Positions 9,835-30,618 of a stretch of 64,000 nucleotides of DNA are shown one piece after another. Below the pieces are notes generated by a model, which was not told the DNA's origin, did not search any database, and was given only the letters and a program-made list of their open reading frames with translations. This stretch comes from a virus. Location of the stretch: positions 6,297 to 70,296 of IMG/VR virus record IMGVR_UViG_3300032093_000089; one strand, given 5' to 3'. The first letter of the stretch is position 1. Every line of letters begins with the position of its first letter. Both the position numbers and the translations under genes were made by a program.

Positions 9835-9837
9835 ATA

Positions 9838-10720: not shown

Positions 10721-10783
10721 GCAGTTTAAAATCTCTGCTATTAGTTTGGCACAGGTTTTTAAATTGGGTATTCGGTTGTTTTT

Positions 10784-12001: not shown

Positions 12002-12792
12002 AGATCTTGCAATCCTTTTTCAAAGGAAATGAGTGGTTTGAAGCCATGCGAAGCAAGCTTGCCACAGTTTAAACCAAAGTGAACGGCTTGGTTGTAGCCG
12101 CTTGGTACATTGTTACGCAACACATACCCTCTTGAATCAACAAGCTGCTTTGCGCTGTCAAGAGCATCACCCAATCTTGTGGAAACTCCTGTACCAATAT
12201 TGTAGATACTGTTGCCATCACCGTTTTTACACAGGAACTGTAAGGCCCTACATGTATCTAAGATATGAATAAAGTCGCGAGAAACATCAATGTGTACACT
12301 GATGTCTTTATGGGTTTTTAAACGATTGACCAGGTAGTGTAATGCATTTCGTTTTTGGTTGCCAGTATCAGGTCCACCATAAACATTGCCCAACCTAAAG
12401 ATTCGATAAGTAATACCAAAGGTTTCACAATATTCTTTTACAAGTTTTTCGGCTGCGTACTTAGTAATTGAATAAAAACCGTTTGGATCACAGAGGGCCT
12501 GCTCGTCTGGGTAAACATGGTTTGGTCCATATACAAACCAACTACTTACAAAATTAAAGGTATCAATCCCTGTTTTGCGGCACATCTCAAGACGCCTCAT
12601 GAGCTGTACTAAATTTGTATCAATATCTACATGGCAATTTTCACGAAAAGTTTGATTGTCCGTTGTACTAATTAAGTACAGGACATTTTTTGTATTGGGC
12701 TCCAGCTGTGCTCGGGGTATGCAGAAAGAAGGGAATAAACCGTTGAAGTAAGTTCCGATAATTCCTGTGCTTCCGTACAGACTTAAATCCAT
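11926..12792 (-). CDS. NAD-dependent epimerase/reductase (extended SDR)
   Basis: GSTGIIG, SSWFVYG, YSITK (YxxxK), RLGNVYG, RDFIHILD. Confidence 0.85.
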   Translation of the reverse strand: MDLSLYGSTGIIGTYFNGLFPSFCIPRAQLEPNTKNVLYLISTTDNQTFRENCHVDIDTNLVQLMRRLEMCRKTGIDTFNFVSSWFVYGPNHVYPDEQALCDPNGFYSITKYAAEKLVKEYCETFGITYRIFRLGNVYGGPDTGNQKRNALHYLVNRLKTHKDISVHIDVSRDFIHILDTCRALQFLCKNGDGNSIYNIGTGVSTRLGDALDSAKQLVDSRGYVLRNNVPSGYNQAVHFGLNCGKLASHGFKPLISFEKGLQDLCLNQKFCTPDRTLMEQKLTQLLLA

Positions 12793-13517
12793 CGCTGCCT
12801 TTGGCTACGAACTGGATCATACAACCAGTAGTCAAGAGGAAGATCCATATCAAATGGTGTGGTGTACTTTTCTTGTCCAGGAAGACCGCCCCATTTCTCC
12901 ACGTAGTAACGTCCATTTTCTTGGTACGTCATACGGTTTTTTGCATAAATTACAGGATCTCTTTTGATTGTGGCGCTAACAGTATGGTGATATTCCAGGG
13001 GCAGGTGCTCCCATTCAATGTCAGCCATCTTCATGCGGTAACGATGGTCGTTATCTTCGTAGTAAGCAGGGAAAAAATTTTCGTCCAAGTAACCAACTTC
13101 ATACAGAAGTTCCGGTGTAAAAATCATGGACGAATATCCGTTTTGTGTTTCATCACAAAGGATTCCAACAAACGGGGTCTCTAATCGCTGAGCAAGTTTT
13201 TTTAATTCGCCTGGCTTGGGATGCCAATCAACTGACAGAATGCACCAATAGGGGCAGTCAATGTTCTGTTTAATGATTTGGTTGATAGCTCCGGAGAATC
13301 CAACGTTCATAAAATTATGTACAACTTCAACATTTTTGACGTATTTACTACCACCTTTAATCTTGTCAATGGCCTGACGCACCTCAGGATCCTGGCCGAT
13401 GGAGTTATCAAGAATGAAGTAACGGTTAACTGGATAATCAATTGAATTGAATTGTTGTAACAAGTCATCGGCTCCGTTGAGGATCATGGTGCCGATCATC
13501 TCAATAGGTTTTGTCAT
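12783..13517 (-). CDS. glycosyltransferase family 2-like
   Basis: ILDNS, NVGFSGAINQII, VGYLDENFFPAYYEDNDHRYR. Confidence 0.8.
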   Translation of the reverse strand: MTKPIEMIGTMILNGADDLLQQFNSIDYPVNRYFILDNSIGQDPEVRQAIDKIKGGSKYVKNVEVVHNFMNVGFSGAINQIIKQNIDCPYWCILSVDWHPKPGELKKLAQRLETPFVGILCDETQNGYSSMIFTPELLYEVGYLDENFFPAYYEDNDHRYRMKMADIEWEHLPLEYHHTVSATIKRDPVIYAKNRMTYQENGRYYVEKWGGLPGQEKYTTPFDMDLPLDYWLYDPVRSQRQRWI

Positions 13518-13699
13518 AGATCAACTCGCAGGTACTCTTCGTCGTCAGCAATCAATCGTTGTTCCAGGAGATCTGCTTCTGTTGTTTCAACATCTTCGAA
13601 AGCAATTCCGTTGCGAAGCTTGTAGTCTCGTTGTAAAAACTCAATAAGATTGATGTCAGATTCGCAATAGTAAAACCGCGTTAGATTACAAGACACCAA
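13514..13699 (-). CDS. hypothetical protein
   Basis: Overlap-coupled in operon. Confidence 0.5.
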   Translation of the reverse strand: MVSCNLTRFYYCESDINLIEFLQRDYKLRNGIAFEDVETTEADLLEQRLIADDEEYLRVDL

Positions 13700-13925
13700 T
13701 CAATTCCCATACACTGACTTTATAGATCAATTCCAATTGGAGTATCAAGATGATACCAAACATTGCAAAGCGCCCATTCCAGCGTTCTGCGTAATGGATA
13801 TAGTCATCCGGATGAAACGGGATTTTATTGAAATGCAAATCTACTAGGTACTCTTTCCACAGGGTTTTGAGTGCCCAAATAAAAAGATCTCGTAGAAACT
13901 CAAACCAAAGTTGGATTTTTCTCAT
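13686..13925 (-). CDS. hli: high-light-inducible protein (CAB-like)
   Basis: AERWNGRFAMFG (ExxNGRxAM) followed by TM helix. Confidence 0.85.
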   Translation of the reverse strand: MRKIQLWFEFLRDLFIWALKTLWKEYLVDLHFNKIPFHPDDYIHYAERWNGRFAMFGIILILQLELIYKVSVWELIGVL

Positions 13926-14026
13926 GCTGCTAGGTGCAATCCACCAAATATAACAAACGTATCGACCACTGTAATCACAAGAATTGAAAAGAGCAGAAGC
14001 ACAATTGCCACCGTAAATCTTGTCAT
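13922..14026 (-). CDS. 34-aa single-TM peptide (not in ORF track)
   Basis: MTRFTVAIVLLLFSILVITVVDTFVIFGGLHLAA*; ATGA overlap with hli. Confidence 0.55.
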   Translation of the reverse strand: MTRFTVAIVLLLFSILVITVVDTFVIFGGLHLAA

Positions 14027-14090
14027 GGTTTACTTTTGCACGCTATGCTTTAAATAATATACAAAACCGTTAACGGTTGCTAAAGTTAAT

Positions 14091-14927
14091 ATGGCTGAAC
14101 CTTGGATCCAGACCAAGAACGAGCAACCTGAAACAATGCGGGATCTAAACAAGACCGCAGCCAGAATTACGCTTAACGGAAAACGGCATTACACCACACC
14201 GTTGCCTACTGGGCCTGCGCCATCTGTAACTACAATCATTAGCGAGACAGCTTCCGAGGCAAATAAACGGAAGCTTGAAATGTGGTCAAAAGCTAACCCA
14301 GGCGTGAAAGAAGCTGCTGCCGAAAGGGGTACAGCTATTCACTATGGCATGGAGCAGTATCTTAAAGGGAATAAATCACCTGATATTCCTGATGGGTATA
14401 AAGATTTTTGGGCGGGTATGCCTTCGATCCTTGATCAATTCCAAGAAATTTTATGGGCGGAATCGCCGGTTCTTGATAAATTTAACTTCACTATTGGCAG
14501 TGATGACGTTGCTCGTGTGTGGGGTTGCGATGGTGACGGGAGAAGTTGGGCTGGCGCTCCCGACATCATTGCTGTGGCTAATAACAAGCTCACTCTGGCT
14601 GATTTAAAAACCAGTGTCAAACCTTATAGCCGCAAATGGCCTAAGGACTTAGATAAAGGATCACCGGAATGGCGTGATCTGTTGGGGGGTCATATGAAAT
14701 TTAAAAAAACCTGCAAACAACTTGCCGCTTACGACATTGCGATCCAGCAAACACTAGGTATAAAAGTCCAGCAAGCAGCCATTCTTGTGTCTACGCCGGT
14801 ACGCACCCAGGTCTTTAAAATCTCCAGGCGGTTTCTGGATGTGCTGCATGAGGATTGGTATAAAATTGTTGCTGAATATTACGAACAGGTCGAGAACTGC
14901 ACTGGTTATGATCCGAATCTTATTTAA
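14091..14927 (+). CDS. PD-(D/E)XK exonuclease (lambda-exo/Cas4-like)
   Basis: PSVTTII, RGTAIH, AGAPD, ADLKTS, QLAAY. Confidence 0.85.
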   Translation: MAEPWIQTKNEQPETMRDLNKTAARITLNGKRHYTTPLPTGPAPSVTTIISETASEANKRKLEMWSKANPGVKEAAAERGTAIHYGMEQYLKGNKSPDIPDGYKDFWAGMPSILDQFQEILWAESPVLDKFNFTIGSDDVARVWGCDGDGRSWAGAPDIIAVANNKLTLADLKTSVKPYSRKWPKDLDKGSPEWRDLLGGHMKFKKTCKQLAAYDIAIQQTLGIKVQQAAILVSTPVRTQVFKISRRFLDVLHEDWYKIVAEYYEQVENCTGYDPNLI

Positions 14928-15177
14928 AGATATTGTTGCTGCCATTGCTGAATGGTGGAAAAAACTTTGGTTTGAATCCAGGCTGAAGGCCCGTCTCAAG
15001 ATGATTGAACTTGAGAATCAAATTGAATCTGAGATAGAAAGAGAGAAGGCCGCTAGGCCGATGTATACCGAACACCCTATTGATCCTGCGCTACAGACAG
15101 GGGAATCTCAAAAACTCGGTGGGGCCATGCAACTCACAGCACCCTGGTACAAAAATGACTGCATGGACGCCCGATAA
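14908..15177 (+). CDS. hypothetical protein
   Basis: Likely start MIRILFKD; overlaps exonuclease end. Confidence 0.5.
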   Translation: MIRILFKDIVAAIAEWWKKLWFESRLKARLKMIELENQIESEIEREKAARPMYTEHPIDPALQTGESQKLGGAMQLTAPWYKNDCMDAR

Positions 15178-15367
15178 TCAGAAGGTTTCTTGGAGTAAAA
15201 CGGATCCGGAGGAGCAACGCCGCCGGGTTGCTTGGTCTGTAGCTACGTCTTGCGCAATTGAGACAGGTGAGTCTCCAGTTGACATCTACAACCGCCTATT
15301 AAAGAAATTTCAAGATGTAAATGCCTACGGACACATGGCTCTAGATGAGTCCAATGAGTCTAAGTAA
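15155..15367 (+). CDS. hypothetical protein
   Basis: Likely start MTAWTPD. Confidence 0.5.
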   Translation: MTAWTPDNQKVSWSKTDPEEQRRRVAWSVATSCAIETGESPVDIYNRLLKKFQDVNAYGHMALDESNESK

Positions 15368-15437
15368 TTCCGGAAAATTGTAAGGGTCTGGTTGGATTGG
15401 TCGCCGTAGGATAAGAAAACACTCAGTTCCGCCCCAG

Positions 15438-15623
15438 ATGGAAATTCACATTTCCCTGGGAGAGTGGATAAATACTCTCCAGATCCGCATGACTAATGCG
15501 GTGGATGGGGATTGTTTTTATCTGCCCTCTCCTATGCATTTACATGCATTTCAACTGGTGAAGGACGCCTCATTTCCTGATCGAAACTTTAGAGTAGAAC
15601 TTAAAGAAGAAAGTAAAGCATGA
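15438..15623 (+). CDS. hypothetical protein
   Basis: ATGA-coupled to primase. Confidence 0.55.
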   Translation: MEIHISLGEWINTLQIRMTNAVDGDCFYLPSPMHLHAFQLVKDASFPDRNFRVELKEESKA

Positions 15624-18259
15624 CCAACCAGAACCAGCAGGCCCTTCGCCCAGGGGAAATTAATCTCGCCTATATCCCCATGGATTGGCCTCTCACTCCT
15701 CTGGGTGCCAAGAAAGATCCTTACATCAACGGGTGGCAGAACAAACCGTTTAGTGTCCGTGAGATTGAAGAGGAAATCGTAACAGGCAAATGCCGTGCCA
15801 TTGGTCTGTTAGGTGGTCCCGTCTACAACCATCCTTACGGCTTGGTCTGGGTTGATATTGATGGTCCCAGCGTGTACAAGCTGGTGGAGGGCATCTCGGA
15901 TATGCCCCTGCTCCAGGCATTGCCGCCAACACTCACCATCATGAGTGGCAAGGTTGGCCGCGAACGTAAGCTCTACAAGCTCAATCGCGACAAGCACAAG
16001 CACTTCGTCAGGAATAAATACACCTGGCATGCGGAAGAAGAAAAAGAAAAACTCGAAATCTTATGGCAACGTCACCAAGGCGTGCTCATGGGTTTGCACC
16101 CAGAAACCGAAGGCTACTTTACAGCTGAATGCCAGGGCTTTGAGTGGGTGGATGAGCTGCCGGAATTTCCGGACTGGCTTCTGAATGCCATCATCAACAA
16201 AAATGTTCGTCAGGGTACACCTGCTAAAGAGCGTACTCGATTCGTTGGCCCTGGCTTTGCCATCAACGCTGAGGTGTCCTTAGAGCGGGACATGAAGCTG
16301 GCAACAGAAGCCATGTGGGCACTGCCGCCGGAAGCAACAGATGACTACGACATCTGGATCACGATTGGTCAGACGCTCCACAGCTTGGACGAATCTCTGC
16401 TTGAGCAGTGGGATGAATGGTCCAAGCAATCAGAAAAGTATAGGGATGGTGAGTGCCACAAGCGGTGGCGATCCTTCTCAAAAAACGGCGGTCGGGGACT
16501 TGGGTCTCTCATTCATATCGCTCAAGAGCATGGCTGGAAGCCTTCTCAGGAGCATCGTGCGATGAATGTAGACGATGACACGCTAGAGCACGTATCCAAA
16601 TTGTTGGCTGAATTAGAAGAGGATTTACAGATGGCACCGGAAGTTCTTGAGGAAACCACTGCTCCCATTGTTGCTCCGCCGATGTGGACGAAACGGCAAA
16701 AGCCGGTGTCATCAGACAAGTCAGGCAAAGACCAACGAACGCGAAACCCTTCATCAAACGTCGTTACCGATGTGGTGTTGGACCTGTATAAAGGAAATCT
16801 GCTTTTTAGTCAACCACACGGGCAATTCTTCATGTACGAGAAAGAAGCTCGTGGTCTGTGGTCTGCCCTGACCAAGATCGAAGTCATGGGTGACATCCGA
16901 TCCAAGCTGCAGCAACTGGGGGACTTCCTTCCTAATGGTTTCAGCACCAACCTGATGACCGATGTCTGCGCACAACTGCAGTCAGTGCTTGCTTTTGAGG
17001 AGTGGTATGACGGTACTGAACTACTGTTGTTTACCAATGGGGTATTGAACGTTTCAAATCGAGAGCTGATTGGTTTTAGTCGAGAGATGCATCTGGTTCA
17101 ACAGATGCCATACCCTTACGATCCGTCCGCTACTTGTGAAGAAATTATTAAATGGCTGAAGAATACGCAACACGATAGCTGGGAACGCACTCAGGTTCTG
17201 CGGGCCTGGCTACGGGCAACCCTGCTTGGCCGTTACGAAACTCAAAAGTTTGTTGAAATCGTGGGTCCCGGCAAGTCGGGGAAATCTACTTATGCCAACC
17301 TGGCCGTAGCACTTGTAGGTAAAAGTAATACGTACTCCACGGACTTTGAAAACCTGGAGAAAAATCGCTTTGAAGCAGCTGCCTATATGGGTAAAAAGCT
17401 TCTGTTGTTTCAGGATGCAGACCGTTGGGGTGGTTCGGTTTCCAGGCTGAAAGCTATTACAGGTAATGATTGGATCCGTAGTGAACGCAAGTATCAAGGC
17501 GAAGGGTTGGATCCTTTTCAGTACCACGGGGTAGTGATGATTACGGCAAACGAAGCCATTCAGTCCACTGACTATACCTCTGGTCTTGCTCGTCGTCGCC
17601 TTACCATTCCGTTCGACCGTCCGTTCACGGGCGGACCAAATGAACAAAAGGAACTGATTAAGTTCAACTCCAAGGGGGAGCCACAAGGTGTGTTCTCACC
17701 TCTACTGCCAGGGCTTGTGAACTGGCTTTTGGATATGACAGAAGATGAGATGCGTGAATATCTAATGGAAACTTCCAAGAAAGTGAAGTTCTTCCAGAAA
17801 TACGAGAAGATGCAAAACCTTCGGTCTAATCCGTTACTGGACTGGATGGAACATAAGGTGATCTACGACCCAGGTATCAGCTCAGCAGTAGGCTTTACCA
17901 AGAATGCGCCGATGGGATCATCTCATATTTACGCTAATCAAGACAAATGGTTGTACGCCAGCTACGCAGAGTTCTGTCGTCAATGCAACGTAGGCATCAT
18001 GTCGCGTAATCGATTTGAACCTCTATTTATTGATATCTGTAAGCACCAGCTAAAAATCAATGCCTTCCCCATGCGTAATACCAGGGGGATGAGGGTTGTA
18101 AATGTAGCGGTCAGAGAGTCCAGCCCAAAATATGAAGGTTGGCCATCCATCGTTGAAGTGTCATCTGATAAAGAGAAATACAAGGAATTCTATGGTATGT
18201 CGCTAGAAGTAAACCTTGATGCGACAATAGAAGATGAACTTGAAACTGCAGATGTCTAA
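15620..18259 (+). CDS. primase-helicase (Prim-Pol + PriCT-2 + D5-like SF3 helicase)
   Basis: WVDIDG, GLHPETE, YDIWITIG..WDEWS..KY..GEC..RWRSF, Walker A GPGKSGKS, LKAITGND, LARRR. Confidence 0.92.
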   Translation: MTNQNQQALRPGEINLAYIPMDWPLTPLGAKKDPYINGWQNKPFSVREIEEEIVTGKCRAIGLLGGPVYNHPYGLVWVDIDGPSVYKLVEGISDMPLLQALPPTLTIMSGKVGRERKLYKLNRDKHKHFVRNKYTWHAEEEKEKLEILWQRHQGVLMGLHPETEGYFTAECQGFEWVDELPEFPDWLLNAIINKNVRQGTPAKERTRFVGPGFAINAEVSLERDMKLATEAMWALPPEATDDYDIWITIGQTLHSLDESLLEQWDEWSKQSEKYRDGECHKRWRSFSKNGGRGLGSLIHIAQEHGWKPSQEHRAMNVDDDTLEHVSKLLAELEEDLQMAPEVLEETTAPIVAPPMWTKRQKPVSSDKSGKDQRTRNPSSNVVTDVVLDLYKGNLLFSQPHGQFFMYEKEARGLWSALTKIEVMGDIRSKLQQLGDFLPNGFSTNLMTDVCAQLQSVLAFEEWYDGTELLLFTNGVLNVSNRELIGFSREMHLVQQMPYPYDPSATCEEIIKWLKNTQHDSWERTQVLRAWLRATLLGRYETQKFVEIVGPGKSGKSTYANLAVALVGKSNTYSTDFENLEKNRFEAAAYMGKKLLLFQDADRWGGSVSRLKAITGNDWIRSERKYQGEGLDPFQYHGVVMITANEAIQSTDYTSGLARRRLTIPFDRPFTGGPNEQKELIKFNSKGEPQGVFSPLLPGLVNWLLDMTEDEMREYLMETSKKVKFFQKYEKMQNLRSNPLLDWMEHKVIYDPGISSAVGFTKNAPMGSSHIYANQDKWLYASYAEFCRQCNVGIMSRNRFEPLFIDICKHQLKINAFPMRNTRGMRVVNVAVRESSPKYEGWPSIVEVSSDKEKYKEFYGMSLEVNLDATIEDELETADV

Positions 18260-18614
18260 TGGGCGTCACTTAATTCTGGATTTGTATGAATGCGATCCAG
18301 AAGCATTGGATGATTACGACCTGCTGGAAGAGTGGTTGGAAGCTGCTCTTCTGATGTCAAAAGCAACCATCATCCGAATCTTTGGTGAGAAGTTTCAGCC
18401 CCAAGGAGTCACCCTACTGGCCTTGTTAGCTGAATCCCATGCGTCCATTCATACTTGGCCGGAGATGGGATACGCCGCCATTGACCTCTACACCTGCGGG
18501 GATACGACCAACACCCACAAGGCTGCCCAGTTCTTGAAGCACAAGCTTAAAGCAAACGTAGCGGAAGAACGGGAGCTACTACGTTCTGTTACTCCAACAG
18601 CAGATAAGAAATAA
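18234..18614 (+). CDS. speD: S-adenosylmethionine decarboxylase proenzyme
   Basis: GRHLILD, FQPQGVT, LAE|SHASIHTWPE, DLYTCG. Confidence 0.92.
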   Translation: MNLKLQMSNGRHLILDLYECDPEALDDYDLLEEWLEAALLMSKATIIRIFGEKFQPQGVTLLALLAESHASIHTWPEMGYAAIDLYTCGDTTNTHKAAQFLKHKLKANVAEERELLRSVTPTADKK

Positions 18615-18631
18615 AAAATTAATAAAAGTTT

Positions 18632-18657
18632 ACCCTTGTTTCGGCAAGGGTTTTTTT
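18632..18657 (+). terminator. intrinsic terminator
   Basis: acccttgt-ttcg-gcaagggt with T run. Confidence 0.85.
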
Positions 18658-18734
18658 GTGCCGCACGAACGTACTAAGGCACGAACGGAAGCAGTACAGG
18701 AATACCAAAATCTTAATGTGGGACTCGTTTGTTG

Positions 18735-18855
18735 GTGCAGAGATGCAGACTTTGGGGGGGTTTCAATCCTTACATGATGTAAATGACACTATCAGTCAAA
18801 GTGTCATTTAGCTCTAATAAAGATAAAAAAGGGGGTAAAGTCTGCAAGTCTGCAC
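18735..18855. repeat. nested inverted repeats, putative replication origin or protein-binding site
   Basis: Outer 19-bp arms (2 mismatches) and inner perfect 11-bp arms, with 26-nt spacers on both sides. Confidence 0.6.
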
Positions 18856-18910
18856 GGGCAAATGACAAAGCGACCCCCTAGAATGTCATTGGTTCCCTGA
18901 GAAGCCAGTC

Positions 18911-19600: not shown

Positions 19601-19678
19601 ACGGATTCCCAGGCTATCTGTAAATTTTCTTTTTATTGTCAAGAAAATTAGTATACTGATCTCAGTTAAGTTGTAAAA

Positions 19679-20923
19679 ATGACTGACAACAAGCCCAAAT
19701 TGCTTTGGATTGGAGATATTGTTGCAACTACGGGCTTTGCTCGTGTTACCGAAAATGTCCTTAGCCGCCTAAAAGATCGGTATGAAATTCATGTACTTGG
19801 TTGCAATTGGCATGGTGATTACACTCCTCTTCAAAATGAGTACTTTTTATACCCGGCGTCTAACCGCTTTCAGCAGGCACCGTTTGGAGAAGATCGTATT
19901 CGGGAATTGGTAGAGCGTATCCGCCCTGATGTTGTCCTTACAATTAACGACAGCTGGATTATCAATGAACAATGGCGACGAATTGCTGATTTGCGCGATC
20001 AATTGAATTTTAAATTCGTGGGTTATTATCCCATGGATTCATATGAATGGTATGGAGCACTTCTTGATACCCTCAACGATTGGGATGCGGCCATTTGCTA
20101 TACAGAATTTGGCGCACAAGAAACAATCAATGCTGGATCCAAGGTTCCAATTACCGTCATTCCTCATGGAATGACTAAAAATCAATTTTATCCAACGGAT
20201 AAGAAAAAAGCCAGAGAAGAGCTTGGCCTTAATCCAGACGATTTTATTGTTTTTAATGGTAATCGTAATCAATTCCGCAAACGAATTGACATTACAATCA
20301 GTGCGTTTGCCAAGTTTGCTGTTGATCGCCCTGATACAAAACTTTATCTCCACATGGGGATGAAGGATCAGGGTTGGGACATCATGCCGTTATTCGCCAG
20401 GGAAATGGTGCGGCAGGGTCTTGATCCCAACAACAGAATTATTATGACAACTCCGCATTCAAACCCTCCTTCAGTCCCGGTAGAGCTATTGAATACAATT
20501 TATAACGTTGCAGACGTTGGTGTTAACACATGTAAAGGTGAGGGTTGGGGACTTGTTAATTTTGAACACGCTGCTTGCCGCGTTGCTCAAGTAGTGCCTA
20601 ATCACACTTCTTGTAAAGAAATCTTTGATGGCACTGGAGAACTTATTCGTTCTCTGCATGGTGATGTAGACGTTAATTTTGGCCGGATTATGCCATGCCC
20701 GGATGACAATCATCTAGCACAGATCTTGGGAGAGCTTTATGAAAATCGTAACAAACTTGATCAAGTTGCTCAGGCTTGTTACGACCGTGTAACGGATACC
20801 TGTTTTGATTGGAGTACGGTGTCCGATCAATTTGATGAAGTGTTTCAGGAAGTTCTTTCCAAGAAAGAAGAAAAAATCCCACAAATTGTAAAACCAAAAG
20901 CTCGAAAAAAAGCTAAAAAATAA
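19679..20923 (+). CDS. glycosyltransferase GT-B (GT4-like)
   Basis: TGFARV, IPHG, RNQFRKRID, GEGWGLVNFEHAAC (Ex7E). Confidence 0.88.
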   Translation: MTDNKPKLLWIGDIVATTGFARVTENVLSRLKDRYEIHVLGCNWHGDYTPLQNEYFLYPASNRFQQAPFGEDRIRELVERIRPDVVLTINDSWIINEQWRRIADLRDQLNFKFVGYYPMDSYEWYGALLDTLNDWDAAICYTEFGAQETINAGSKVPITVIPHGMTKNQFYPTDKKKAREELGLNPDDFIVFNGNRNQFRKRIDITISAFAKFAVDRPDTKLYLHMGMKDQGWDIMPLFAREMVRQGLDPNNRIIMTTPHSNPPSVPVELLNTIYNVADVGVNTCKGEGWGLVNFEHAACRVAQVVPNHTSCKEIFDGTGELIRSLHGDVDVNFGRIMPCPDDNHLAQILGELYENRNKLDQVAQACYDRVTDTCFDWSTVSDQFDEVFQEVLSKKEEKIPQIVKPKARKKAKK

Positions 20924-20933
20924 TTAAACAATA

Positions 20934-20959
20934 AAGGCTCCGTTAATCGGAGCTTTTTT
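20934..20959 (+). terminator. intrinsic terminator
   Basis: ggctccg-ttaat-cggagct followed by T run. Confidence 0.8.
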
Positions 20960-21015
20960 ATGACACTGACTACTCAAATAATGAAGAGTAGAATGTTAAA
21001 AAGTTGATTATCATA

Positions 21016-21759: not shown

Positions 21760-21810
21760 TTAAAACTACGCTAAACTCGGGCTTATTAAATTTGATGCAA
21801 TATAAAAAGG

Positions 21811-22248: not shown

Positions 22249-22268
22249 AAAAAACAGGGATAAACCCA

Positions 22269-22433
22269 ATGGACAAACTCAATCAGTATTTAGAAGTTGC
22301 ACTTGCTGTTCATGCAACTGCTTCTGTAATTGTTGCGTTAACACCGACACCCTCTGATGATAAATTGGTTGGTAAGTTTTATAAACTTATCGAGATCCTA
22401 GCTCTTGTTGTTGGGCGTGCCAAGCAACGTTAA
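22269..22433 (+). CDS. putative holin (not in ORF track)
   Basis: MDKLNQYLEVALAVHATASVIVALTPTPSDDKLVGKFYKLIEILALVVGRAKQR*; hydrophobic helices, TPTPxDD motif; abuts endolysin. Confidence 0.55.
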   Translation: MDKLNQYLEVALAVHATASVIVALTPTPSDDKLVGKFYKLIEILALVVGRAKQR

Positions 22434-23458
22434 TAATTCCAGCGAATTTTTTGTTTGGTTGCGCGTATTCCTAAATGCACAAACCCCTTGGGAGCACCGT
22501 ATCCAAGTGAGGCGGGCCAGTGTTTATCACAGTATTTTTCAACTTCGTAAATACTGGCCCCTTTGATGTAAAAATCAATGGCTCCTACGTTGGGAGCATT
22601 ATATAGGTGCTCAGAAGAAGAAGCGCCTCCAACAGAACGATTAATGGCGGGAGGGCGATATCCACTTGTGATAATTACAGGTTTGCCTCCAAAGTTTTTG
22701 CGAACTTGTTCAATAAATCTACACAATTCAATTGCAGTGTCACATTGATATTTTTGTGTAAAACGACGTGCTTCTTGGTTTAAACAAATTTCACCATAAG
22801 TAATGTTAGGTGTTACTTTGTATTCAAAAGGGCTGTTAGGTAAAAAAGGATTTGCTGCTGGCACTGAATCAGGCTTTGATAAAACAGGGATCGTTTTGAT
22901 TTGACGATCCATAATTTGAATCAATTTTATTGCGTAATTAGGATCTGTAGCATATTTTTCTTTTACCAATAACTCTGCACATTCATTCCTATTTTCGGCG
23001 CGATTGACACCTTTATATTGACCAAAATCTTTGTACCACCGATCCACTAAGTAATGGACACATGTTGTTAAATCAGGAAAATCAAGAAACCCCGCTTTAA
23101 TTAGGATCCAGTTACCGTTAATAAATTCTTGAGTACTGACATTAGAGCCCGATCCTTTTAATCCAAAAAAATTATTAACACCAGAGGTATGTTCTCCCCA
23201 GCCCGACTCTAATGCCCATTGTGCTGCTACACATTCAGGAAATCTTGCACCTGCTTTTTTAGCAGCAGCAAAAACGCCTTCCCATGTATTAGAAAAAAGT
23301 TCTTGCGGAAGTTTATGTTTTTCTTCGTTATTACGATAGCGTTCGGCAAAACCGTCTAACTGCTCAAGTGTTAGCTGTTTTTGTAGCCAGTCCCAGGCTT
23401 CATTTTGATGCTTTAATTTGTTGTAGTGCTCGGCTGCATCACGTAGTTTTATTGGCAT
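22430..23458 (-). CDS. endolysin: GH73 glucosaminidase + peptidase M15A
   Basis: AQWALESGWG, NNFFGLKG, YATDPNY; ITSGYR, SSEH, AIDF, GFVHLG. Confidence 0.88.
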   Translation of the reverse strand: MPIKLRDAAEHYNKLKHQNEAWDWLQKQLTLEQLDGFAERYRNNEEKHKLPQELFSNTWEGVFAAAKKAGARFPECVAAQWALESGWGEHTSGVNNFFGLKGSGSNVSTQEFINGNWILIKAGFLDFPDLTTCVHYLVDRWYKDFGQYKGVNRAENRNECAELLVKEKYATDPNYAIKLIQIMDRQIKTIPVLSKPDSVPAANPFLPNSPFEYKVTPNITYGEICLNQEARRFTQKYQCDTAIELCRFIEQVRKNFGGKPVIITSGYRPPAINRSVGGASSSEHLYNAPNVGAIDFYIKGASIYEVEKYCDKHWPASLGYGAPKGFVHLGIRATKQKIRWNY

Positions 23459-24149
23459 TGTCCAACAACTGTTTGAAATTGCCTACATATACTTTAGGTC
23501 CAACATGCATACATGTAGACGTGGTATTAATCCAAATATCAAACCCTAACTGTTTTAATTTTTCGCAAAGATAAATATCCTCGCCCATAAAATGTTCGCC
23601 AATAAAATCGTACTGACAGATATTAAACAGTTGTTTACCACGAAATTCAGTTAGGGTGCTGTTGTCCGCCAATGCTTTCAAGGCTTTTCGGCCCAGCTTT
23701 AAACAGCTGGTGCTTACCCTGTCCGCCTTTACCCAATTTCCTTCTTGCTTGGGTTCGCCTGCAAAAGAGATGTCGTAACTTTCAATATCAGTTTTTTTGA
23801 CTGTAGGGATAGCCACTACATCTCGTGCATCGGTAATAACATCCAAAAAAGATTGAGCGTTACAAAAAACGTCGGAGTCAATAAAGATAAGGTTGTCAAA
23901 ATCACCCTTAATGGCAGCTGTCAACAGTTCGTTTCGGGCCATGGGGAGGATGCTCTCATAAGACAAAAGAATCATCTGAACATCAATACCCTTCATCTGA
24001 CAAAGCTTTGTGATCTCATGGATGGCGTAGCTGTACCAGGCATCAACACGGCCGTCGAGAGCAGGAGTCCCAATCAGTACACGCTTTGGTTGTTTCTGAG
24101 ATTGTTTAAAAGTTTTTGCCACTGGGAAAACCTTTTTTGCCATGTCCAA
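23439..24149 (-). CDS. glycosyltransferase GT-A-like
   Basis: IGTPALDG, ARNEL, IFIDSD (DxD), GEDIYLC, CMHVG. Confidence 0.75.
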   Translation of the reverse strand: MDMAKKVFPVAKTFKQSQKQPKRVLIGTPALDGRVDAWYSYAIHEITKLCQMKGIDVQMILLSYESILPMARNELLTAAIKGDFDNLIFIDSDVFCNAQSFLDVITDARDVVAIPTVKKTDIESYDISFAGEPKQEGNWVKADRVSTSCLKLGRKALKALADNSTLTEFRGKQLFNICQYDFIGEHFMGEDIYLCEKLKQLGFDIWINTTSTCMHVGPKVYVGNFKQLLDNANKTT

Positions 24150-24997
24150 TGTTTATTGTAAAATTTTGTTTGATCAGCTAAATTCTGTTGATTTTCTGGT
24201 GACCAATAATTGTCAATGACCCTGTTCAAAAGAATAGCGTAATTTTGTGCCAATCGTTCATAATTACTGTCGTAACTTATAAAGTCAGCGTATTCACCAC
24301 AGGTTTCAAACAATGCACCGTAATTAGTGACCACTGCTTGGCATCCAGCGCACATTGCTTCTATTGCTGAAATGCAAGAAGTTTCTTCAAATATGCTGGG
24401 ATAAGCAAAAATATGAGCGTCTTGAAGGGCGGAACGGATCTCTTCGTTTGGCGCGTATCCTTTAACATTAATTCCAGGGGTGTTTTTTAATTCTGCAAAC
24501 AGCTGATCAAACTGTCCCTCCAAGGATTTAGCAAACGACTTGCCGTAAATAATTGTTGAAGAATATACGTCCAGTTCAATGTCATCTCTGTTGAGAATTT
24601 GAAAAGCACGCAATAATACATGCAGTCCGCGCCAGGGGGTTGATGTGTAGATCAACTTGAGCTTACCTTTAGGTTTATGTTTTAGCTCAAAAGCTGTCGT
24701 TGCATTTTTAATAACAACTGACTTCCAGGCTGGCGTGTTGAATTTTTCCCTAAATTTTTCATAACACCAATGAGAGTCATAAATAAAACAATCAATTTTA
24801 TCAACAAAATTAGGGCTCTTCATGCCCTGTACATTTTCTTGGTCGTAACTCAATTCTTGTAAAAGAATGTTTTTTTTACCTGGAACAATCAATTCAGGCC
24901 TGCATACAGAAACAATCAAGTTAATTCCGGAGAAATTTAACTTGCTTTTTAATGTTTCAACAAGGATTTCTGTGCCGCCTTTTGGTTGATCAGGCAT
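24074..24997 (-). CDS. glycosyltransferase GT-B (GT4-like)
   Basis: GGTE, YTSTPWRGL, YPSIFEETSCISAIEAM; start likely MPDQPKGG. Confidence 0.85.
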   Translation of the reverse strand: MPDQPKGGTEILVETLKSKLNFSGINLIVSVCRPELIVPGKKNILLQELSYDQENVQGMKSPNFVDKIDCFIYDSHWCYEKFREKFNTPAWKSVVIKNATTAFELKHKPKGKLKLIYTSTPWRGLHVLLRAFQILNRDDIELDVYSSTIIYGKSFAKSLEGQFDQLFAELKNTPGINVKGYAPNEEIRSALQDAHIFAYPSIFEETSCISAIEAMCAGCQAVVTNYGALFETCGEYADFISYDSNYERLAQNYAILLNRVIDNYWSPENQQNLADQTKFYNKHWTWQKRFSQWQKLLNNLRNNQSVY

Positions 24998-25595
24998 TAC
25001 ATTCAAACAGGAAATCAACCTGGAGTAACTGATTGTTCCGATCATAGATATTATCGATGATGTCTCGCAAGTAGTATCCTTTTTTATCCAAGTAGCTGAT
25101 TACACTTCCTGCTAAAGGAGCACCATGATTGTATTGCTGGACTGATGTTTCCAAGAGCAGATATCGTGGTCGTGTTTGTTTGAAGTATTTTTTGCCGCCT
25201 TTCAAAATGTCAAGTTCAGCGCCTTGTACATCAAGCTTAATTAAATCAAATGATGGAAAGTTTAAATCATCTATTGCATACATCCACTTTTTGAGCACCA
25301 CGGGATTGGTGTAGTAGATCGTGTTCTCACGATAGATGGAACTTCCGGTTGTGCAGCTTTCCTCCGGAAGCGTGTAGAAATCTACTTGTTTAGTTTCTTT
25401 GCCAAGTAGATAAAAATCTGTGTTAAACGCTTGAAGGAATGGCGCCTGTCGTTCGTCTCCCTCAATACATTTGATGCGTGCACCAGGAAACAACTGATGG
25501 GCTAGGCGTGCAAACTCGCCGCGATAAGCTCCAACATCTAAAACACTTGTGACAGGGTGCTCTAGATGCTGGAGGCGCTGTCGAAACCGATCCAT
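24990..25595 (-). CDS. FkbM-family methyltransferase
   Basis: VLDVGAYRGEF, LIKLDVQGAELDIL, LLQVDFLF. Confidence 0.88.
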   Translation of the reverse strand: MDRFRQRLQHLEHPVTSVLDVGAYRGEFARLAHQLFPGARIKCIEGDERQAPFLQAFNTDFYLLGKETKQVDFYTLPEESCTTGSSIYRENTIYYTNPVVLKKWMYAIDDLNFPSFDLIKLDVQGAELDILKGGKKYFKQTRPRYLLLETSVQQYNHGAPLAGSVISYLDKKGYYLRDIIDNIYDRNNQLLQVDFLFECNA

Positions 25596-25602
25596 TGAGG
25601 GA

Positions 25603-25914
25603 TCAGCTCAGAGAGGTAATGTCAAAATCGTTAATTTTTTCTTCCGTAGGGGTTCCGGTCATGCTGCCGTAGAAGCTATCAAAAACCATGTCCAGATGCA
25701 CGGTATTGCAAAAATCCAACAGCTCAGCTTTAGTGAAATCAGCGGGCTCTTTATCTAAATACTCAACATCTGCTCCACGATCAAAATTTTTGATCAAACC
25801 ATTGCAGCTGTATACAACGGTAAGATCCCAACTTTTTACTTTACCGTTAGTTTTAACAGTGGGGATAGCCCTGGAAAGTGCCTTGGTAGCACCGATAGCG
25901 TTAATAAAAGCCAT
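25603..25914 (-). CDS. hypothetical protein, possible tail-fibre assembly
   Basis: Directly downstream of tail fibre. Confidence 0.5.
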   Translation of the reverse strand: MAFINAIGATKALSRAIPTVKTNGKVKSWDLTVVYSCNGLIKNFDRGADVEYLDKEPADFTKAELLDFCNTVHLDMVFDSFYGSMTGTPTEEKINDFDITSLS

Positions 25915-25956
25915 TGTAAAAAACCTTACTCAATTAATTTTAACAGTTTTTTTGTA

Positions 25957-28900
25957 TTAATTTACTTTGTCCTCTAATAAAGCAAGTCGTTCAGAAAGTT
26001 CTTGCACGGCTTTAACCAAAATTGGATATGTCTTCATGGGATCAGCTTCCCACATGTTTGGGTTGTCCTTATGAACAAGGCGTGTGTACTCACTACAGTT
26101 AAACGTTTGTTCAACTTGGTCCAGCTCTTGGGCGATAAAACCAAAATCTTTTCTACCTTTTTTGGAGCCGTCTCTGGTCGCCCAATCAAACTGAACAGGG
26201 CGCAGAGCCTGAATAAAAGTGACGCCAAAAGGTAAATTTTGAATATTTGTTTTATCTCGAACGTCTGAAAGCGTAGAAATTGTAGTATCAGCACAGCGAA
26301 GGTTTACAACATCCGCATTTCCAAGGGTGAATTCACCGGTTACAGTTGCTGCGCTTGCTTGAGCATTATTACCAATACAGGTATTGTTAACCCCAGTTGT
26401 TAAAGTGTTTCCTGCATTGTTACCAACTGCAGTGTTACCAGTGGCTATTGTATTGGCAATTAAAGTACCAAAACCAACTGCAACGTTACTACTGCCTGTT
26501 GTATTAGCACCTAAACCGCTAACACCAACTGCAACGTTGGCAGCGCCTGTTGTATTACCAATTAAAGCACGGTAACCAATTGCAGTGTTGTTATTGGCTA
26601 TTGTATTAGCAAGTAAAGCAAAACTACCAACTGCAACGTTTTGAGTGCCTGTTGTATTAGCACCTAAAGCACCATAACCAACTGCAGTGTTGTTACTGGC
26701 TGTTGTATTAACATCTAAAGCACTGTCACCAACTGCAGTGTTTTGAGAGCCTGTTGTATTAGCATTTAAAGCAAGGTAACCAAATGCCGTGTTGAAACTG
26801 GCTGTTGTATTAGAACCTAAAGCACTATAACCAACTGCTGTGTTGTTATCGCCTGTTGTATTAGCATCTAAAGCAATATCACCAACTGCGGTATTACCAG
26901 CGCCTATTGTATTACTGTCTAAACATTGAAAACCAACTGCAGTATTATCAGCGCCTGTTGTATTAGCAGTTAAAGCATCGTCACCAATTGCAGTGTTACC
27001 AGTGGCTGTTGTATTAGAACCTAAAGCACTGATACCAACTGCAGTGTTACTAGAGCCTACTGTATTGGCATCTAAAGCATTGTCACCAACCGCAACGTTA
27101 TCAATGCCTGTTGTATTAAGAAGTAAGGCATTTTCACCAATTGCAACGTTATTAGCGCCTGTTGTATTGGCATCTAAAGCGTTATGACCAACTGCAGTGT
27201 TACCAGCGCCTGTTGTATTGGTAGCTAAAGCATTGACACCAACTGCAGTGTTACGGGAGCCTACTGTATTAGCAACTAAACCACTAACACCAACTGCAGT
27301 GTTACCAGCGCCTGTTGTATTGGCAGCTAAAGCAGCACGACCAACTGCAGTGTTACCAGAGGCTGTTGTATTAGAAGTTAAAGCACTGGAACCAATTGCG
27401 GTGTTACTAACACCTGTTGTATTGACATCTAAAGCATTGTAACCAACAGCAGTGTTATTGTTGCCTGTTGTATTAGCTTTACCTACTTGATAGCCAATAA
27501 ACGTATTGTTAATTCCTGTATTAACTAAACCAGCTTCAAAACCAAGACTGGTTTCAAATGGTGTAACGCTATCCGTCTGGCCGGATAAATTAGCTGAAGC
27601 CGAAACAGAGGCCCAGGTTGTAGTGCCATCTGAGTTTGTCTGTAAATATGTACCAGAAATTCCCGTTGTTGCTGGAAAGCTGAACAGACCATATGGACGA
27701 ATATCACCGGAGCCACTGACAATTAAAACACCACCACTGGCGTAATAGGCACTACCAGAGATAACACCGCTTGTAAATACACCGCTACCAAAATATCCAC
27801 TGCCGCTAACACTGATGCTACCTGTTGTAGTTTGTGTAAAGTTAGCAACTGTAAAGTTACCGGTTACTGCATTAACGGTTACAGCCTCAACTGTGGCGCC
27901 AGTAATGTACGTACCAGAAATACGAGTAAAGTTACCAGTTGCGACTGTTAGGTTACCAAATAAACCTGTATTACCAGTTACTGTGCCACCAGAAATGGTC
28001 ACACTTTCTACCCTGGTAGTGCCGGTAATAAAACCAAATGTTGCGTTATCACCAACAACACTTTGCCCAGAAAGTTGCGTTGTAAATACACCACTTACAC
28101 CACTGATTAATGTGCCGTTAAGTCTTGTAAAGTTACCAGTTGCGCCCGTTAGATTGTCAAATAAACCAGTATTACCCGTTACTGTGTTACCGGAAACAGT
28201 TCCGCCTTCTACTCGGGTAATACCTGTGACGTAGTTAAAAACCGCGTTCTCACCAACAAAATTTTCTCCAGAAACCTCTGTTGTAAATACGCCGCTTACG
28301 CCTGTAATGTTCGTAAAGTTGCCTGCGGTTCCTGTAATGGTTGCGCCAGAAATCTGAGATGTAAATACCCCACTAATTCCTGTAACTGTACCAAAATTAC
28401 CAACAGCGCCCGTGACAATTGCACCAGAAATACTGGTGGTAAAAACACCAGAAACACCAGTGATATTGCTGAAACGGCCCGCATCTCCTGTAATGATTGC
28501 ACCAGAGATTCGATCTGTGAATGCCCCGCTTACTGCATTGACGTTTGCAAAGGAACCTGTAATGCCTGTTATAACAGCGCCTGAAAGTTGAGAAGTAAAG
28601 ACACCAGAGATACCCGTAATGAGAGTAAAACGCCCTGCATTGCCTGTAATAACAGAACCAGAAACTGAATTAAAAATGCCAGTGACAAAATTACCAGTTG
28701 TTGCGTTGATGGTATTACCAGTGACAGTTGCACCACTCAGGGTAGTGGTAAAGACTCCACTAACAGCTGTAACCCTGGTAAAGGAGCCAGATACACCTGT
28801 AATTGTGGCGCCAGAAATACTGGTCAGCCCGTAAATTTCGTTACCAGTCAAGATAGCAAAACCACCAGTTGCACCTGTAACTGTGGTGCCAGACAGTGTT

Positions 28901-30123
28901 CCGCTGACCGTAAGGCCAGATGAAATGGTTCCGTTACCGCTGATAATCAGGTTTCCGCCAGCAATAATGTTGCCTGTCGTGGTGATTGTTGGAATAGAAA
29001 GAGTTTCAACAAAAACGCCAGTCAGAGCTTCGATTCGTTGGAATAACCCACTTACTCCAGTAATTGTTAAACCAGAAACACGAGAAGTAAAGACGCCCGT
29101 TGTACCGGTAATTGAAGTAAACCTTCCAACATTACCCGTGATAATGGCGCCGGATACGTCACTAGTGAATACACCTGATACGCCAGTAACAACCGTTGCG
29201 TTAACAGATGTACCAGTAATTGCAGCGCCCGATAATTGAGTAGTGAAAGCTCCGAAAGATCCGGTAAAGTTCGTAAAGGCACCCGTTGCGCCAGTAATGG
29301 TTGTTCCTGAAAGTTGGGATGTAAAAGCACCCGAAACTCCAGTTAATGTTGCAAATAAACCAGTAGCTCCGGTGATAGTTAAACCAGAGAGCCGTGTAGT
29401 GAATGTGCCACTAACACCTGTGGTGTTTGTACTAAGAATCGCGTCACCAGTAATGATCGCGCCAGATAAACGGGTTGTGAAGACACCGCTAACCCCCGTA
29501 ATATTGCTAAAGCGTCCTGCGTCACCGGTAACAACGGCACCTGAAATTTGAGTCGTAAAGACCCCATTTACACCCGTAACGTTTGTACCACTGATATTTG
29601 AAAAAATACCGGTTGCACTGTTAACGGTTTGTCCGGATATGTTGTTAAATAAACCTGTTGTACCAGTAATTGTTACCGCATTGACACGGGTAAAATTACC
29701 AGTACCAACTGTTTCCGTACCGACCGTTAATGTTGTGATATTTCCGGTTGTGGCATTAACGTTTAAACCGTTAATTTGAATACCAGTTATCGTCGCACCA
29801 CTTAAAACATTTTGTACCTGTGCGTTACCAGTAACAACTAGGTGAGCAAAAGTACCAGTGCCACTAACGTTGAGTACGTTGGGGTTAAAAATTCCGCTAA
29901 CTGTTAAATTGTTGGCAACAACCAGGGAGCCGCCAATTGTGATATCTCCGGTTGTGGAGTTAAGGTAGTAATTGTTTAAATATTGCTTTATATTGGCAAA
30001 ATTTAATTTTTTATTCTTTAAACCGGGGTCTATTTCTGCAACGTCAACGACCATCAGCAAGTCGTCATCATTGATTGATGACGACAAAATTGCTGGCAGC
30101 TCTGTTATACGCCTATTAGCCAC
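25957..30123 (-). CDS. long tail fibre with beta-roll repeats and C-terminal S74 chaperone
   Basis: N-term RRITELP..DLLMVVD; ~22-aa G/T repeats; 14-aa NTAVGxxALxxNTT repeats; SDVRDKTNI..GFIAQEL. Confidence 0.9.
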   Translation of the reverse strand: MANRRITELPAILSSSINDDDLLMVVDVAEIDPGLKNKKLNFANIKQYLNNYYLNSTTGDITIGGSLVVANNLTVSGIFNPNVLNVSGTGTFAHLVVTGNAQVQNVLSGATITGIQINGLNVNATTGNITTLTVGTETVGTGNFTRVNAVTITGTTGLFNNISGQTVNSATGIFSNISGTNVTGVNGVFTTQISGAVVTGDAGRFSNITGVSGVFTTRLSGAIITGDAILSTNTTGVSGTFTTRLSGLTITGATGLFATLTGVSGAFTSQLSGTTITGATGAFTNFTGSFGAFTTQLSGAAITGTSVNATVVTGVSGVFTSDVSGAIITGNVGRFTSITGTTGVFTSRVSGLTITGVSGLFQRIEALTGVFVETLSIPTITTTGNIIAGGNLIISGNGTISSGLTVSGTLSGTTVTGATGGFAILTGNEIYGLTSISGATITGVSGSFTRVTAVSGVFTTTLSGATVTGNTINATTGNFVTGIFNSVSGSVITGNAGRFTLITGISGVFTSQLSGAVITGITGSFANVNAVSGAFTDRISGAIITGDAGRFSNITGVSGVFTTSISGAIVTGAVGNFGTVTGISGVFTSQISGATITGTAGNFTNITGVSGVFTTEVSGENFVGENAVFNYVTGITRVEGGTVSGNTVTGNTGLFDNLTGATGNFTRLNGTLISGVSGVFTTQLSGQSVVGDNATFGFITGTTRVESVTISGGTVTGNTGLFGNLTVATGNFTRISGTYITGATVEAVTVNAVTGNFTVANFTQTTTGSISVSGSGYFGSGVFTSGVISGSAYYASGGVLIVSGSGDIRPYGLFSFPATTGISGTYLQTNSDGTTTWASVSASANLSGQTDSVTPFETSLGFEAGLVNTGINNTFIGYQVGKANTTGNNNTAVGYNALDVNTTGVSNTAIGSSALTSNTTASGNTAVGRAALAANTTGAGNTAVGVSGLVANTVGSRNTAVGVNALATNTTGAGNTAVGHNALDANTTGANNVAIGENALLLNTTGIDNVAVGDNALDANTVGSSNTAVGISALGSNTTATGNTAIGDDALTANTTGADNTAVGFQCLDSNTIGAGNTAVGDIALDANTTGDNNTAVGYSALGSNTTASFNTAFGYLALNANTTGSQNTAVGDSALDVNTTASNNTAVGYGALGANTTGTQNVAVGSFALLANTIANNNTAIGYRALIGNTTGAANVAVGVSGLGANTTGSSNVAVGFGTLIANTIATGNTAVGNNAGNTLTTGVNNTCIGNNAQASAATVTGEFTLGNADVVNLRCADTTISTLSDVRDKTNIQNLPFGVTFIQALRPVQFDWATRDGSKKGRKDFGFIAQELDQVEQTFNCSEYTRLVHKDNPNMWEADPMKTYPILVKAVQELSERLALLEDKVN

Positions 30124-30567: not shown

Positions 30568-30618
30568 CATGCAGAAAACTAATTTACACCCTAACATCTA
30601 AAGAGATCGTTTGAAGCA

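Follow-up and report, generated by a model that had tools for sequence, protein, structure and literature searches.

A 64-kb stretch of DNA (hereafter the window) from the linear, 70,296-base IMG/VR record IMGVR_UViG_3300032093_000089 encodes several glycosyltransferases (GTs), a predicted nucleotide-sugar pathway and a methyltransferase, and here we describe these genes, their distribution in related phages and the possible acceptors of the sugars that they handle. The window belongs to an uncultured freshwater cyanophage of the S-EIV1 type, and CheckV estimates the record to be about 89% complete, so that about 11% of the genome is unseen. Of the named phages, Synechococcus phage S-EIVl, from a high-arctic lake, is the closest; it shares gene order with the window across its entire length and has a large terminase subunit (TerL) of 82.8% protein identity. 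Megablast of positions 8800-30200 against the phage collection returned no near-identical DNA.

The preliminary description of this DNA had proposed that four GTs and an FkbM-family methyltransferase, lying together between the tail fibre and the endolysin, form one virion glycosylation system. All five enzymes are present where it had placed them, as seen from Pfam, PHROG and TIGR matches and AF2 models (Table 1). They make up three glycan modules with separate inheritance, namely a core GT-B enzyme, a sugar island and a late cassette beside the fibre gene. A single system of four GTs is not supported by comparison with relatives: the GT at 19679 is universal, S-EIVl included, the GT2-like enzyme sits in a separate hypervariable island, and this enzyme and the cassette are each found in contigs that lack the other.

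Table 1. Genes and features of the three glycan modules and of the adjoining fibre and lysis genes (window positions)
Feature	Position	Strand	Evidence
NDP-glucose 4,6-dehydratase (RmlB type), last gene of island operon	8857..9834	-	TIGR01181; PF16363 4e-81
RmlC-type 3,5-epimerase	9838..10506	-	TIGR01221 191.8 bits (cut-off 155.75); PF00908 9e-58
80-aa backbone open reading frame (ORF) splitting the island	10478..10720	-	59% identity to S-EIVl ORF; in all island types; no Pfam family
E1/RfbH/ColD-type pyridoxamine phosphate (PMP)-dependent NDP-4-keto-6-deoxyhexose 3-dehydrase, DegT fold	10784..12001	-	3bcx match; His for Lys
Short extended short-chain dehydrogenase/reductase (SDR), predicted 4-ketoreductase	11926..12792	-	PF01370 3.6e-25 over C-terminal part; GxxGxxG at residues 7-13; YxxxK
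GT-A (GT2-like) glycosyltransferase (GT2_244), first enzyme of island operon	12783..13517	-	phrog_29879 4.3e-25; AF2 pLDDT 85.7
Core GT-B (GT4-like) glycosyltransferase, replication block	19679..20923	+	Glycos_transf_1 27.8 bits (cut-off 26.4); phrog_2170 7.5e-56
Endolysin (glucosaminidase + M15 peptidase), downstream edge of fibre slot	22430..23458	-	PF01832 4.3e-18; PF08291 3.5e-21; phrog_10051
GT-A glycosyltransferase, phrog_1574 family, 236 aa	23439..24149	-	DSD (DxD) motif; AF2 model
GT-B glycosyltransferase, GT4-like, short N-terminal half, 323 aa	24074..25045	-	phrog_2170; PF00534 (Glycos_transf_1)
FkbM-family methyltransferase, optional in cassette	24990..25595	-	PF05050; TIGR01444
103-aa protein directly 3' of fibre gene	25603..25914	-	No Pfam, PHROG or PADLOC match
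Tail fibre, 1388 aa	25957..30123	-	phrog_23837; phrog_4636; PF13884; conserved N-terminal anchor, 26-aa-period middle, 17-aa NTAVG/NTTG repeat, S74 chaperone
Peptidase_S74 intramolecular chaperone, fibre residues 1286-1337	26113..26268	-	PF13884 2.2e-10
17-aa (51-nt) repeat array, 16/17 NTT triplets	26422..27477	-	TRF period 51, 20.7 copies, 74% matches

Late cassette, core glycosyltransferase and sugar island

The late cassette forms part of a co-directional run that leads from the fibre gene through the 103-aa ORF, the FkbM gene, the GT-B and the GT-A to the endolysin, with gaps of 42 and 7 nt followed by overlaps. Two GTs and a methyltransferase are thereby placed inside a virion structural and late block, in an order that is the same in 10 relatives. 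The layout proposed earlier holds for positions 23439-25595, which do lie between fibre and endolysin; it fails for the GT at 19679, which is on the plus strand, and for the one at 12783, which is 10 kb away in another operon. Exonuclease, primase, S-adenosylmethionine decarboxylase (AdoMetDC) and endolysin genes separate the latter from the fibre. Of the five enzymes, the GT-A, the GT-B and FkbM alone are encoded in the fibre-endolysin run. Terminator-like sites in this run are not in excess (12 against 8.3 +/- 3.1, within chance), and the counts of a promoter scan are likewise within chance.

The AF2 model of the cassette GT-A (pLDDT 92.7) has a GT-A Rossmann-like fold, and a Foldseek search of the PDB gave 302 matches at E <= 0.001, with GT-A enzymes leading. 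The top solved match is a viral GT, STIV A197 (5.9e-10), followed by COLGALT1, LH3 and the ppGalNAc-Ts, which are protein-glycosylating GT-A enzymes; phage proteins in BFVD match at TM-scores of 0.79-0.85. Residues D82 and D84 are invariant across 34 sequences, and no Pfam family scores above its cut-off (Anp1 reaches 18.5 bits against 28.8). One BFVD entry, A0A6J5M7M7_2, is a 788-aa uncultured-phage protein that is named an FkbM methyltransferase and carries a GT-A domain like that of the cassette enzyme (TMq 0.70), a fusion of FkbM-type and GT-A activities.

The neighbouring GT-B passes the PF00534 cut-off with its C-terminal part (56.6 bits against 26.4); its shorter N-terminal half has no match to PF13439 (Glyco_transf_4), and phrog_2170 aligns only from profile position 113. 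The closest ESM Atlas clusters of this enzyme are 90-100% viral. The FkbM protein clears both of its curated cut-offs, with 50.8 bits against 22.7 for PF05050 and 48.9 against 37.7 for TIGR01444. A relationship of the 103-aa ORF to DUF7936 was considered and rejected (hhalign probability 0.3%). None of the enzymes has a transmembrane (TM) segment (maximum KD19 1.27), and none is matched by the PADLOC models of defence systems. Directly upstream of the fibre gene, a 140-aa protein (30175-30597, minus strand), found in all relatives, has one strong TM segment (KD19 2.32) and possibly a holin-like or fibre-associated role.

The core GT-B lies between an endonuclease gene and the AdoMetDC and primase genes, and is 65% identical to a gene of S-EIVl annotated as 'glycosyl transferase group I'. 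It is present wherever a locus reaches its position, in 9/9 relatives selected by the cassette GT pair and also in 15 loci sampled by a backbone gene; S-EIVl has it and lacks both the GT2 operon and the fibre cassette. A paralogous relationship between the core and cassette GT-B enzymes was rejected, as BLAST finds no similarity between them. The setting of the core gene would be compatible with phage DNA as an acceptor, such that at least one GT glycosylates modified phage bases and thereby evades host restriction. DNA glucosylation is a known role of phage GTs, and it is raised for cyanophage GTs in the accessible part of PMC12801897. Against this stands the lack of a hydroxymethylase or any other base-modifying enzyme in Pfam scans covering nearly all ORFs of at least about 90-110 aa in the 70-kb, about 89% complete record, and also the position of the cassette in a late fibre-lysis run. 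We further know of no methyl-capped or dideoxy sugars on DNA, and we regard this alternative, which had been listed in the preliminary description, as very improbable.

The sugar island was overlooked in the preliminary description apart from its GT. The nucleotide-sugar genes at 8857-12792 lie just outside the range that it covered; they are directly downstream of GT2_244 in the same operon, and the range of the finding should reach to 8857. GT2_244 itself was correctly recognized in that its model has a GT-A fold with Foldseek matches to GT2-type enzymes (E 2e-8), though its Pfam GT2 score falls below the gathering threshold (PF00535, 22.5 bits, 1.2e-4, against 23.3). The RmlB-type enzyme scores as a dTDP-glucose 4,6-dehydratase equivalog (TIGR01181, 388.9 bits against 365.1). 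The 3-dehydrase falls short of the RfbH equivalog model NF011936 (359.5 bits against 423), and its best PDB match is 3bcx, the Yersinia ascarylose E1 enzyme (2.2e-70), with ColD next. When aligned to wild-type 3bcx and to 3bb8, a chain with Lys at the position in question, the phage protein shows PAHH there and a conserved DCYC...C...C pattern. A His in place of the Schiff-base Lys, together with Fe-S cysteines, defines an E1-type 3-dehydrase; an aminotransferase assignment was rejected on account of the His at the aminotransferase Lys position and the retained Cys cluster.

Together, the RmlB-type, 3-dehydrase, RmlC-type and SDR enzymes constitute a predicted phage-encoded route to a 3,6-dideoxyhexose, and the enzymes of the island would yield an NDP-3,6-dideoxyhexose from host NDP-glucose and then transfer it. 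Profile scans of the ORFs of the record found neither a nucleotidyltransferase nor an E3-type reductase, and the host must therefore supply both. A limited literature search found no description of a phage-encoded E1-type 3-dehydrase. The island and the exonuclease gene are read in opposite directions from a shared intergenic region, which serves the exonuclease/primase operon as well.

Lineage-wide, the stretch from the exonuclease to a ferritin-like gene (6724-14091 in the window) is hypervariable (relatives L097-L117 and L148-L157). At least five alternative gene sets occupy it, besides islands with methyltransferases only: 1) GT2_244 with the SDR and the E1-like enzyme, with or without RmlC/RmlB. 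2) GT2_244 with one or more methyltransferases, including a sugar C-methyltransferase type. 3) Gly_transf_sug with DUF4422, an SDR and an E1-like enzyme. 4) Gmd with DegT and a CAP59-like GT. 5) A 514-aa CAP59/GT2-like GT with a fusion of HAD and nucleotidyltransferase domains. S-EIVl has none of these sets. The 80-aa backbone ORF is kept even in relatives without sugar genes.

The tail fibre and the distribution of the modules

The fibre is rich in Thr and Ser, as had been claimed (T 17.2%, S 8.5%, N 9.9%, G 14.9%), it has 17 NTT triplets, and its S74 domain clears the PF13884 cut-off (41.1 bits against 22). Its repeat has a period of 17 aa by both TRF and autocorrelation, which peaks at 17 and 34 residues, rather than the 14 aa given earlier. 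Sixteen of the triplets are spaced at multiples of 17 residues, and every NTT of the array occupies one fixed position of the unit 'NTAVG..AL..NTTG', so that the triplet looks like a structural ladder position of the repeat and not a free sequon. Since the triplets are fixed in a structural repeat that cassette-less relatives (L061, L078) have too, they are no evidence for glycosylation.

The lineage is widespread: a single pattern scan with a backbone protein indicates at least 544 relatives in IMG/VR, of which 80 + 11 + 32 loci were analysed. The 80 were selected by a backbone gene, and 29 of them span the slot between fibre and endolysin. A scan with the cassette GT-B gave the 11, and in all 10 full loci among these the order is fibre(s), [103-aa ORF, FkbM], GT-B, GT-A, endolysin. 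The FkbM gene and the 103-aa ORF are present in six of these 10 and absent from four, and therefore the methyl cap would be dispensable; the ORF accompanies FkbM in 6/6 cases, and L061 and L078 have it although they lack GTs in the slot. In two of the six, from different samples, FkbM is split into two ORFs of 80 and 103 aa (L005:9451-10056 and L006:9451-10056).

The distribution of the cassette follows the type of fibre tip. In every case the GT-A/GT-B pair, whether FkbM accompanies it or not, adjoins one tip module and no other, comprised of a linker, the 17-aa repeat and an S74 domain at least 50% identical to that of the window; this holds for 10/10 cassette contigs besides the window itself, against 0/28 cassette-less loci that span the slot. 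The S74 identities to the window are 50-85% in the former and at most 34% in the latter. The check proposed with the initial description, whether the cassette co-varies with fibre type, was thus borne out, with the proviso that adjacency alone predicts the same. Four cassette genomes could be placed in a capsid-gene tree, and they fall at four separate positions (4 changes for 4 positives). These scattered positions, taken with the constant tip type, indicate that tip and cassette move together relative to the capsid. Among cassette loci the GT-B is 74-92% identical and the repeat region of the fibre 30-60%, so conservation is higher in the GTs than in the fibre.

The slot in backbone-selected loci otherwise holds fibre accessories, namely Phage_tail_APC chaperones, which act in tail-fibre assembly, DUF7936 proteins and extra fibres. 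In three loci it contains tyrosine-integrase or KilA-N genes (L026:1398-1862, L092:3792-4646, L045:6740-7483); the S-EIVl isolate has no annotated integrase. In other relatives, beside glycine-rich fibres, it contains a 2-oxoglutarate (2OG)-Fe(II) oxygenase with a 'ferrochelatase' of phrog_2954, a pair seen also in the pelagiphage HTVC023P (gp65-67) (L020:2105-3450, L064:2088-3433; L096:1116-2999). A 236-aa ORF of L020 was rejected as a relative of the cassette GT-A (hhalign probability 0.1%) and proved to be the phrog_2954 'ferrochelatase'.

Outside the lineage, HTVC023P gp77-gp78 are homologous GT-B and GT-A proteins (phrog_2170 and phrog_1574), located between tail-fibre-like and ejection proteins; the cassette GT-B is 37% identical to gp77. 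Two phage groups that are unrelated to each other have hence kept the GT-B and GT-A together. By tblastn, the FkbM and GT-A proteins have no homology to the methyltransferase and GT-A of phage DLP_6.

The cassette and the island show a partial association. GT2_244 is present in six of the seven cassette genomes, spanning three capsid clades, against 1/14 backbone-sampled cassette-less contigs in which both slots are covered (0/13 long contigs searched, plus the L083/L105 contig), counts that ignore kinship between contigs. One contig has the cassette without GT2_244, and that genome carries the Gmd/DegT/CAP59 set. The capsid tree yields two concordant contrasts and one tie, and the link between cassette and island is suggestive only.

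Two further differences from S-EIVl lie outside the glycan modules. Its terminase gene is 2541 nt long (L002:9080-11620) and aligns in two pieces to the 509-aa TerL of the window (52905-54434, minus strand), so that it appears to hold an intein- or intron-like insertion that the window lacks. Its AdoMetDC is annotated at just 52 aa (L001:9579-9737), and that of the window (18234-18614, plus strand) is full-length at 126 aa (PF02675 1.3e-35).

Possible acceptors of the glycans

The identities of the enzymes, their gene order and their distribution in relatives are established here; what the enzymes act on, which sugar they make, when they are expressed and whether the modules work together are matters of inference. 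Our preference, held with somewhat less than even confidence, is that the late cassette is a late virion or fibre glycosylation module with an optional methyl cap. The soluble cassette enzymes would act in the cytoplasm on newly made fibre or another virion protein; the two GTs would build a short O-linked glycan with donors from the island and the host, FkbM would methyl-cap it, and the glycan would travel with the type of fibre tip. Several points argue for a virion target: 1) the tight packing of the run. 2) The fibre accessories that usually fill the slot. 3) The pair in HTVC023P. 4) The viral clusters around the GT-B. 5) The neighbourhood of the GT-A model to STIV A197 and protein-modifying GTs. 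6) The 788-aa FkbM/GT-A protein. 7) The solubility of the enzymes. 8) The stronger conservation of the GTs relative to the fibre. 9) The presence of GT2_244 in 6/7 cassette genomes. 10) The mycobacteriophage precedents described below. The earlier proposal had left open whether fibre or capsid is decorated. The tip linkage would fit decoration of the fibre, and does so despite the four capsid-tree positions; for the capsid, no cassette-linked extension of the protein was seen, its open frames being 388-391 aa in 17/17 matches, which detracts from a capsid target.

Other observations weigh against a virion or fibre module. The tip linkage could equally be explained by adjacency alone, since recombination from the conserved N-terminus of the fibre to the endolysin exchanges the whole intervening stretch. 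With its integrases and KilA-N genes, the slot is a general insertion hot spot. The NTT repeat, as noted above, is also found in loci that lack the cassette. As is general for S74 domains, the S74 chaperone would be cleaved off the mature fibre, and it is the very part of the fibre most tightly linked to the cassette. The structural matches of the GT-A are generic (TM-score about 0.5-0.57), and two T4-like phages, phiM12 and DLP_6, have their homologues of the GT-B next to nrdC, RNaseH and tRNA genes and away from structural ones. GT2_244 occurs without the cassette in nine contigs. A dependence of the cassette on any sugar module of the island was rejected (7/7 against 9/13, p = 0.15); many cassette-less contigs lack the E1-like enzyme or GT2, but the resulting signal dissolved once islands that had seemed empty turned out to contain different sets, with GT, NTP-transferase or methyltransferase genes.

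The T4-like homologues in non-structural regions would also suit an arrangement in which the modules are unrelated, each serving a different acceptor (e.g. a host protein, a small molecule or a cell-wall polymer), with the cassette as a passenger moron. The separate inheritance of the three modules accords with this, as do the presence of the cassette in one of the 29 backbone-sampled slot-spanning loci (on a contig that the GT-B scan had also returned) and the break in the FkbM gene of L005 and L006, which come from different samples. This arrangement is at variance with the co-occurrence of GT2_244 and cassette in 6/7 genomes of three capsid clades, with the joint retention of GT-B and GT-A by both of the unrelated phage groups and with the fusion of an FkbM protein to a GT-A domain in the 788-aa phage protein, and we consider it unlikely.

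A further alternative places the glycan on the host surface. The island and the cassette would modify lipid-linked intermediates on the cytoplasmic side of the membrane, thereby change the O-antigen of the lipopolysaccharide (LPS) or some other glycan of the envelope, and so mask the receptor of this type of fibre; the purpose would be to prevent superinfection or the loss of progeny on debris. Pathways for 3,6-dideoxyhexose, perosamine-type and C-methyl sugars are typical of O-antigen clusters, and the gene sets of the island, at least five in number, amount to an O-antigen-like diversity. A receptor-masking gene would likewise co-vary with the fibre tip; T5 llp, located beside the receptor-binding gene of that phage, is a precedent. 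The fibre-endolysin slot being an insertion hot spot also agrees with host-surface modification, and the island, by sharing its divergent intergenic region with the exonuclease/primase operon, need not be late. Furthermore, the cyanophage literature interprets such genes as modifying the cell wall or LPS, in the accessible parts of PMC12801897 and PMC9599517. However, Pfam and NCBIfam scans and the TM check found no flippase, polymerase, ligase, polyprenyl-phosphate GT or membrane enzyme, and a Gtr-type seroconversion system (GtrA flippase, GtrB bactoprenol GT and GtrC) is likewise not indicated by any TM segment or match in those scans. A recent bacterial origin is not indicated either, given the viral Atlas clusters nearest to the GT-B family, the HTVC023P pair is inside a tail/ejection module, and the closest isolate, S-EIVl, has no annotated integrase. 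We judge host-surface modification to be rather unlikely, yet it is the most serious alternative to a virion target.

Returning to fibre decoration, a broader version of it is doubtful though conceivable: the core GT, the variable deoxysugar island and, in some genomes, the tip-linked GT pair with its methyl cap might jointly put a variable glycan on the fibre, resulting in phage 'serotypes' that are exchanged horizontally together with the tip.

Relation to known glycosylation systems

As a rule, GT and sugar genes of aquatic phages are classed, untested, as auxiliary genes for LPS, and the present lineage offers a compact, comparable system, with one universal GT, one island with interchangeable pathways and one tip-tied GT pair. 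To our knowledge, phage-encoded virion glycosylation has been demonstrated for mycobacteriophages only. If the glycan is on the fibre, this would be the first case outside the actinophages, and one with its own supply of a rare sugar. With the fibre as acceptor, glycans would join the biology of cyanophage host range and adsorption, and the island would be the counterpart, on the phage side, of O-antigen diversity; with the host surface as acceptor, the genes would form a receptor-masking system of a lytic phage that has its own rare-sugar pathway.

The biochemistry of the island resembles the CDP-ascarylose route of Yersinia (3bcx) in its 4,6-dehydratase, E1-like PMP-dependent 3-dehydrase with His for Lys and a Cys cluster, epimerase and SDR reductase. 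It differs in that the dehydratase scores as a dTDP type, the E3 reductase and the nucleotidyltransferase are missing and the RfbH model stays below its cut-off. Among phages, the T4-like cyanophages P-SSM2, S-SCSM1 and S-SCSM2R share with the window phage-encoded GTs, NDP-sugar epimerases and RmlC, as described in the accessible part of PMC12801897. Theirs are large myovirus clusters, read there as host-surface or DNA modification, in contrast to the small S-EIV1-type genome with its E1-type 3-dehydrase and tip-linked GT pair. HTVC023P has a homologous GT-B directly followed by a phrog_1574 GT-A within a tail-fibre/ejection block; unlike the window, it is a SAR11 podovirus without FkbM, and the neighbours of the pair are 2OG-Fe(II) oxygenases.

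Virion glycosylation of mycobacteriophages is the nearest demonstrated system. In Corndog, the structural operon includes genes for an O-methyltransferase and GTs, for which the authors proposed capsid modification (PMC4351075, accessible part), and capsid glycans of Che8 are cited in the accessible part of PMC11256854. To the extent that these sources describe them, both systems (gp35-38 in Corndog) are like ours in combining an O-methyltransferase with two or three soluble GTs in a structural block, the enzymes not being virion components. They differ in having an actinobacterial host and a capsid or tail-tube target, whereas in the present case a cyanobacterial host is presumed, the cassette is linked to a fibre tip, the capsid protein shows no accompanying change and the glycan is putative.

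Giant viruses also possess glycosylation machineries, chlorovirus PBCV-1 with its A064R among them. They are eukaryotic viruses with other enzyme families, and in the phage described here the link from island to virion is putative. Nevertheless, the fibril glycans of the Megavirinae, as presented in the accessible part of PMC10117803, appear to be the closest analogue of the variable island: they too are made by virus-encoded rare-sugar pathways that vary between clades, with GTs and a methyltransferase, in the cytoplasm and independently of the host.

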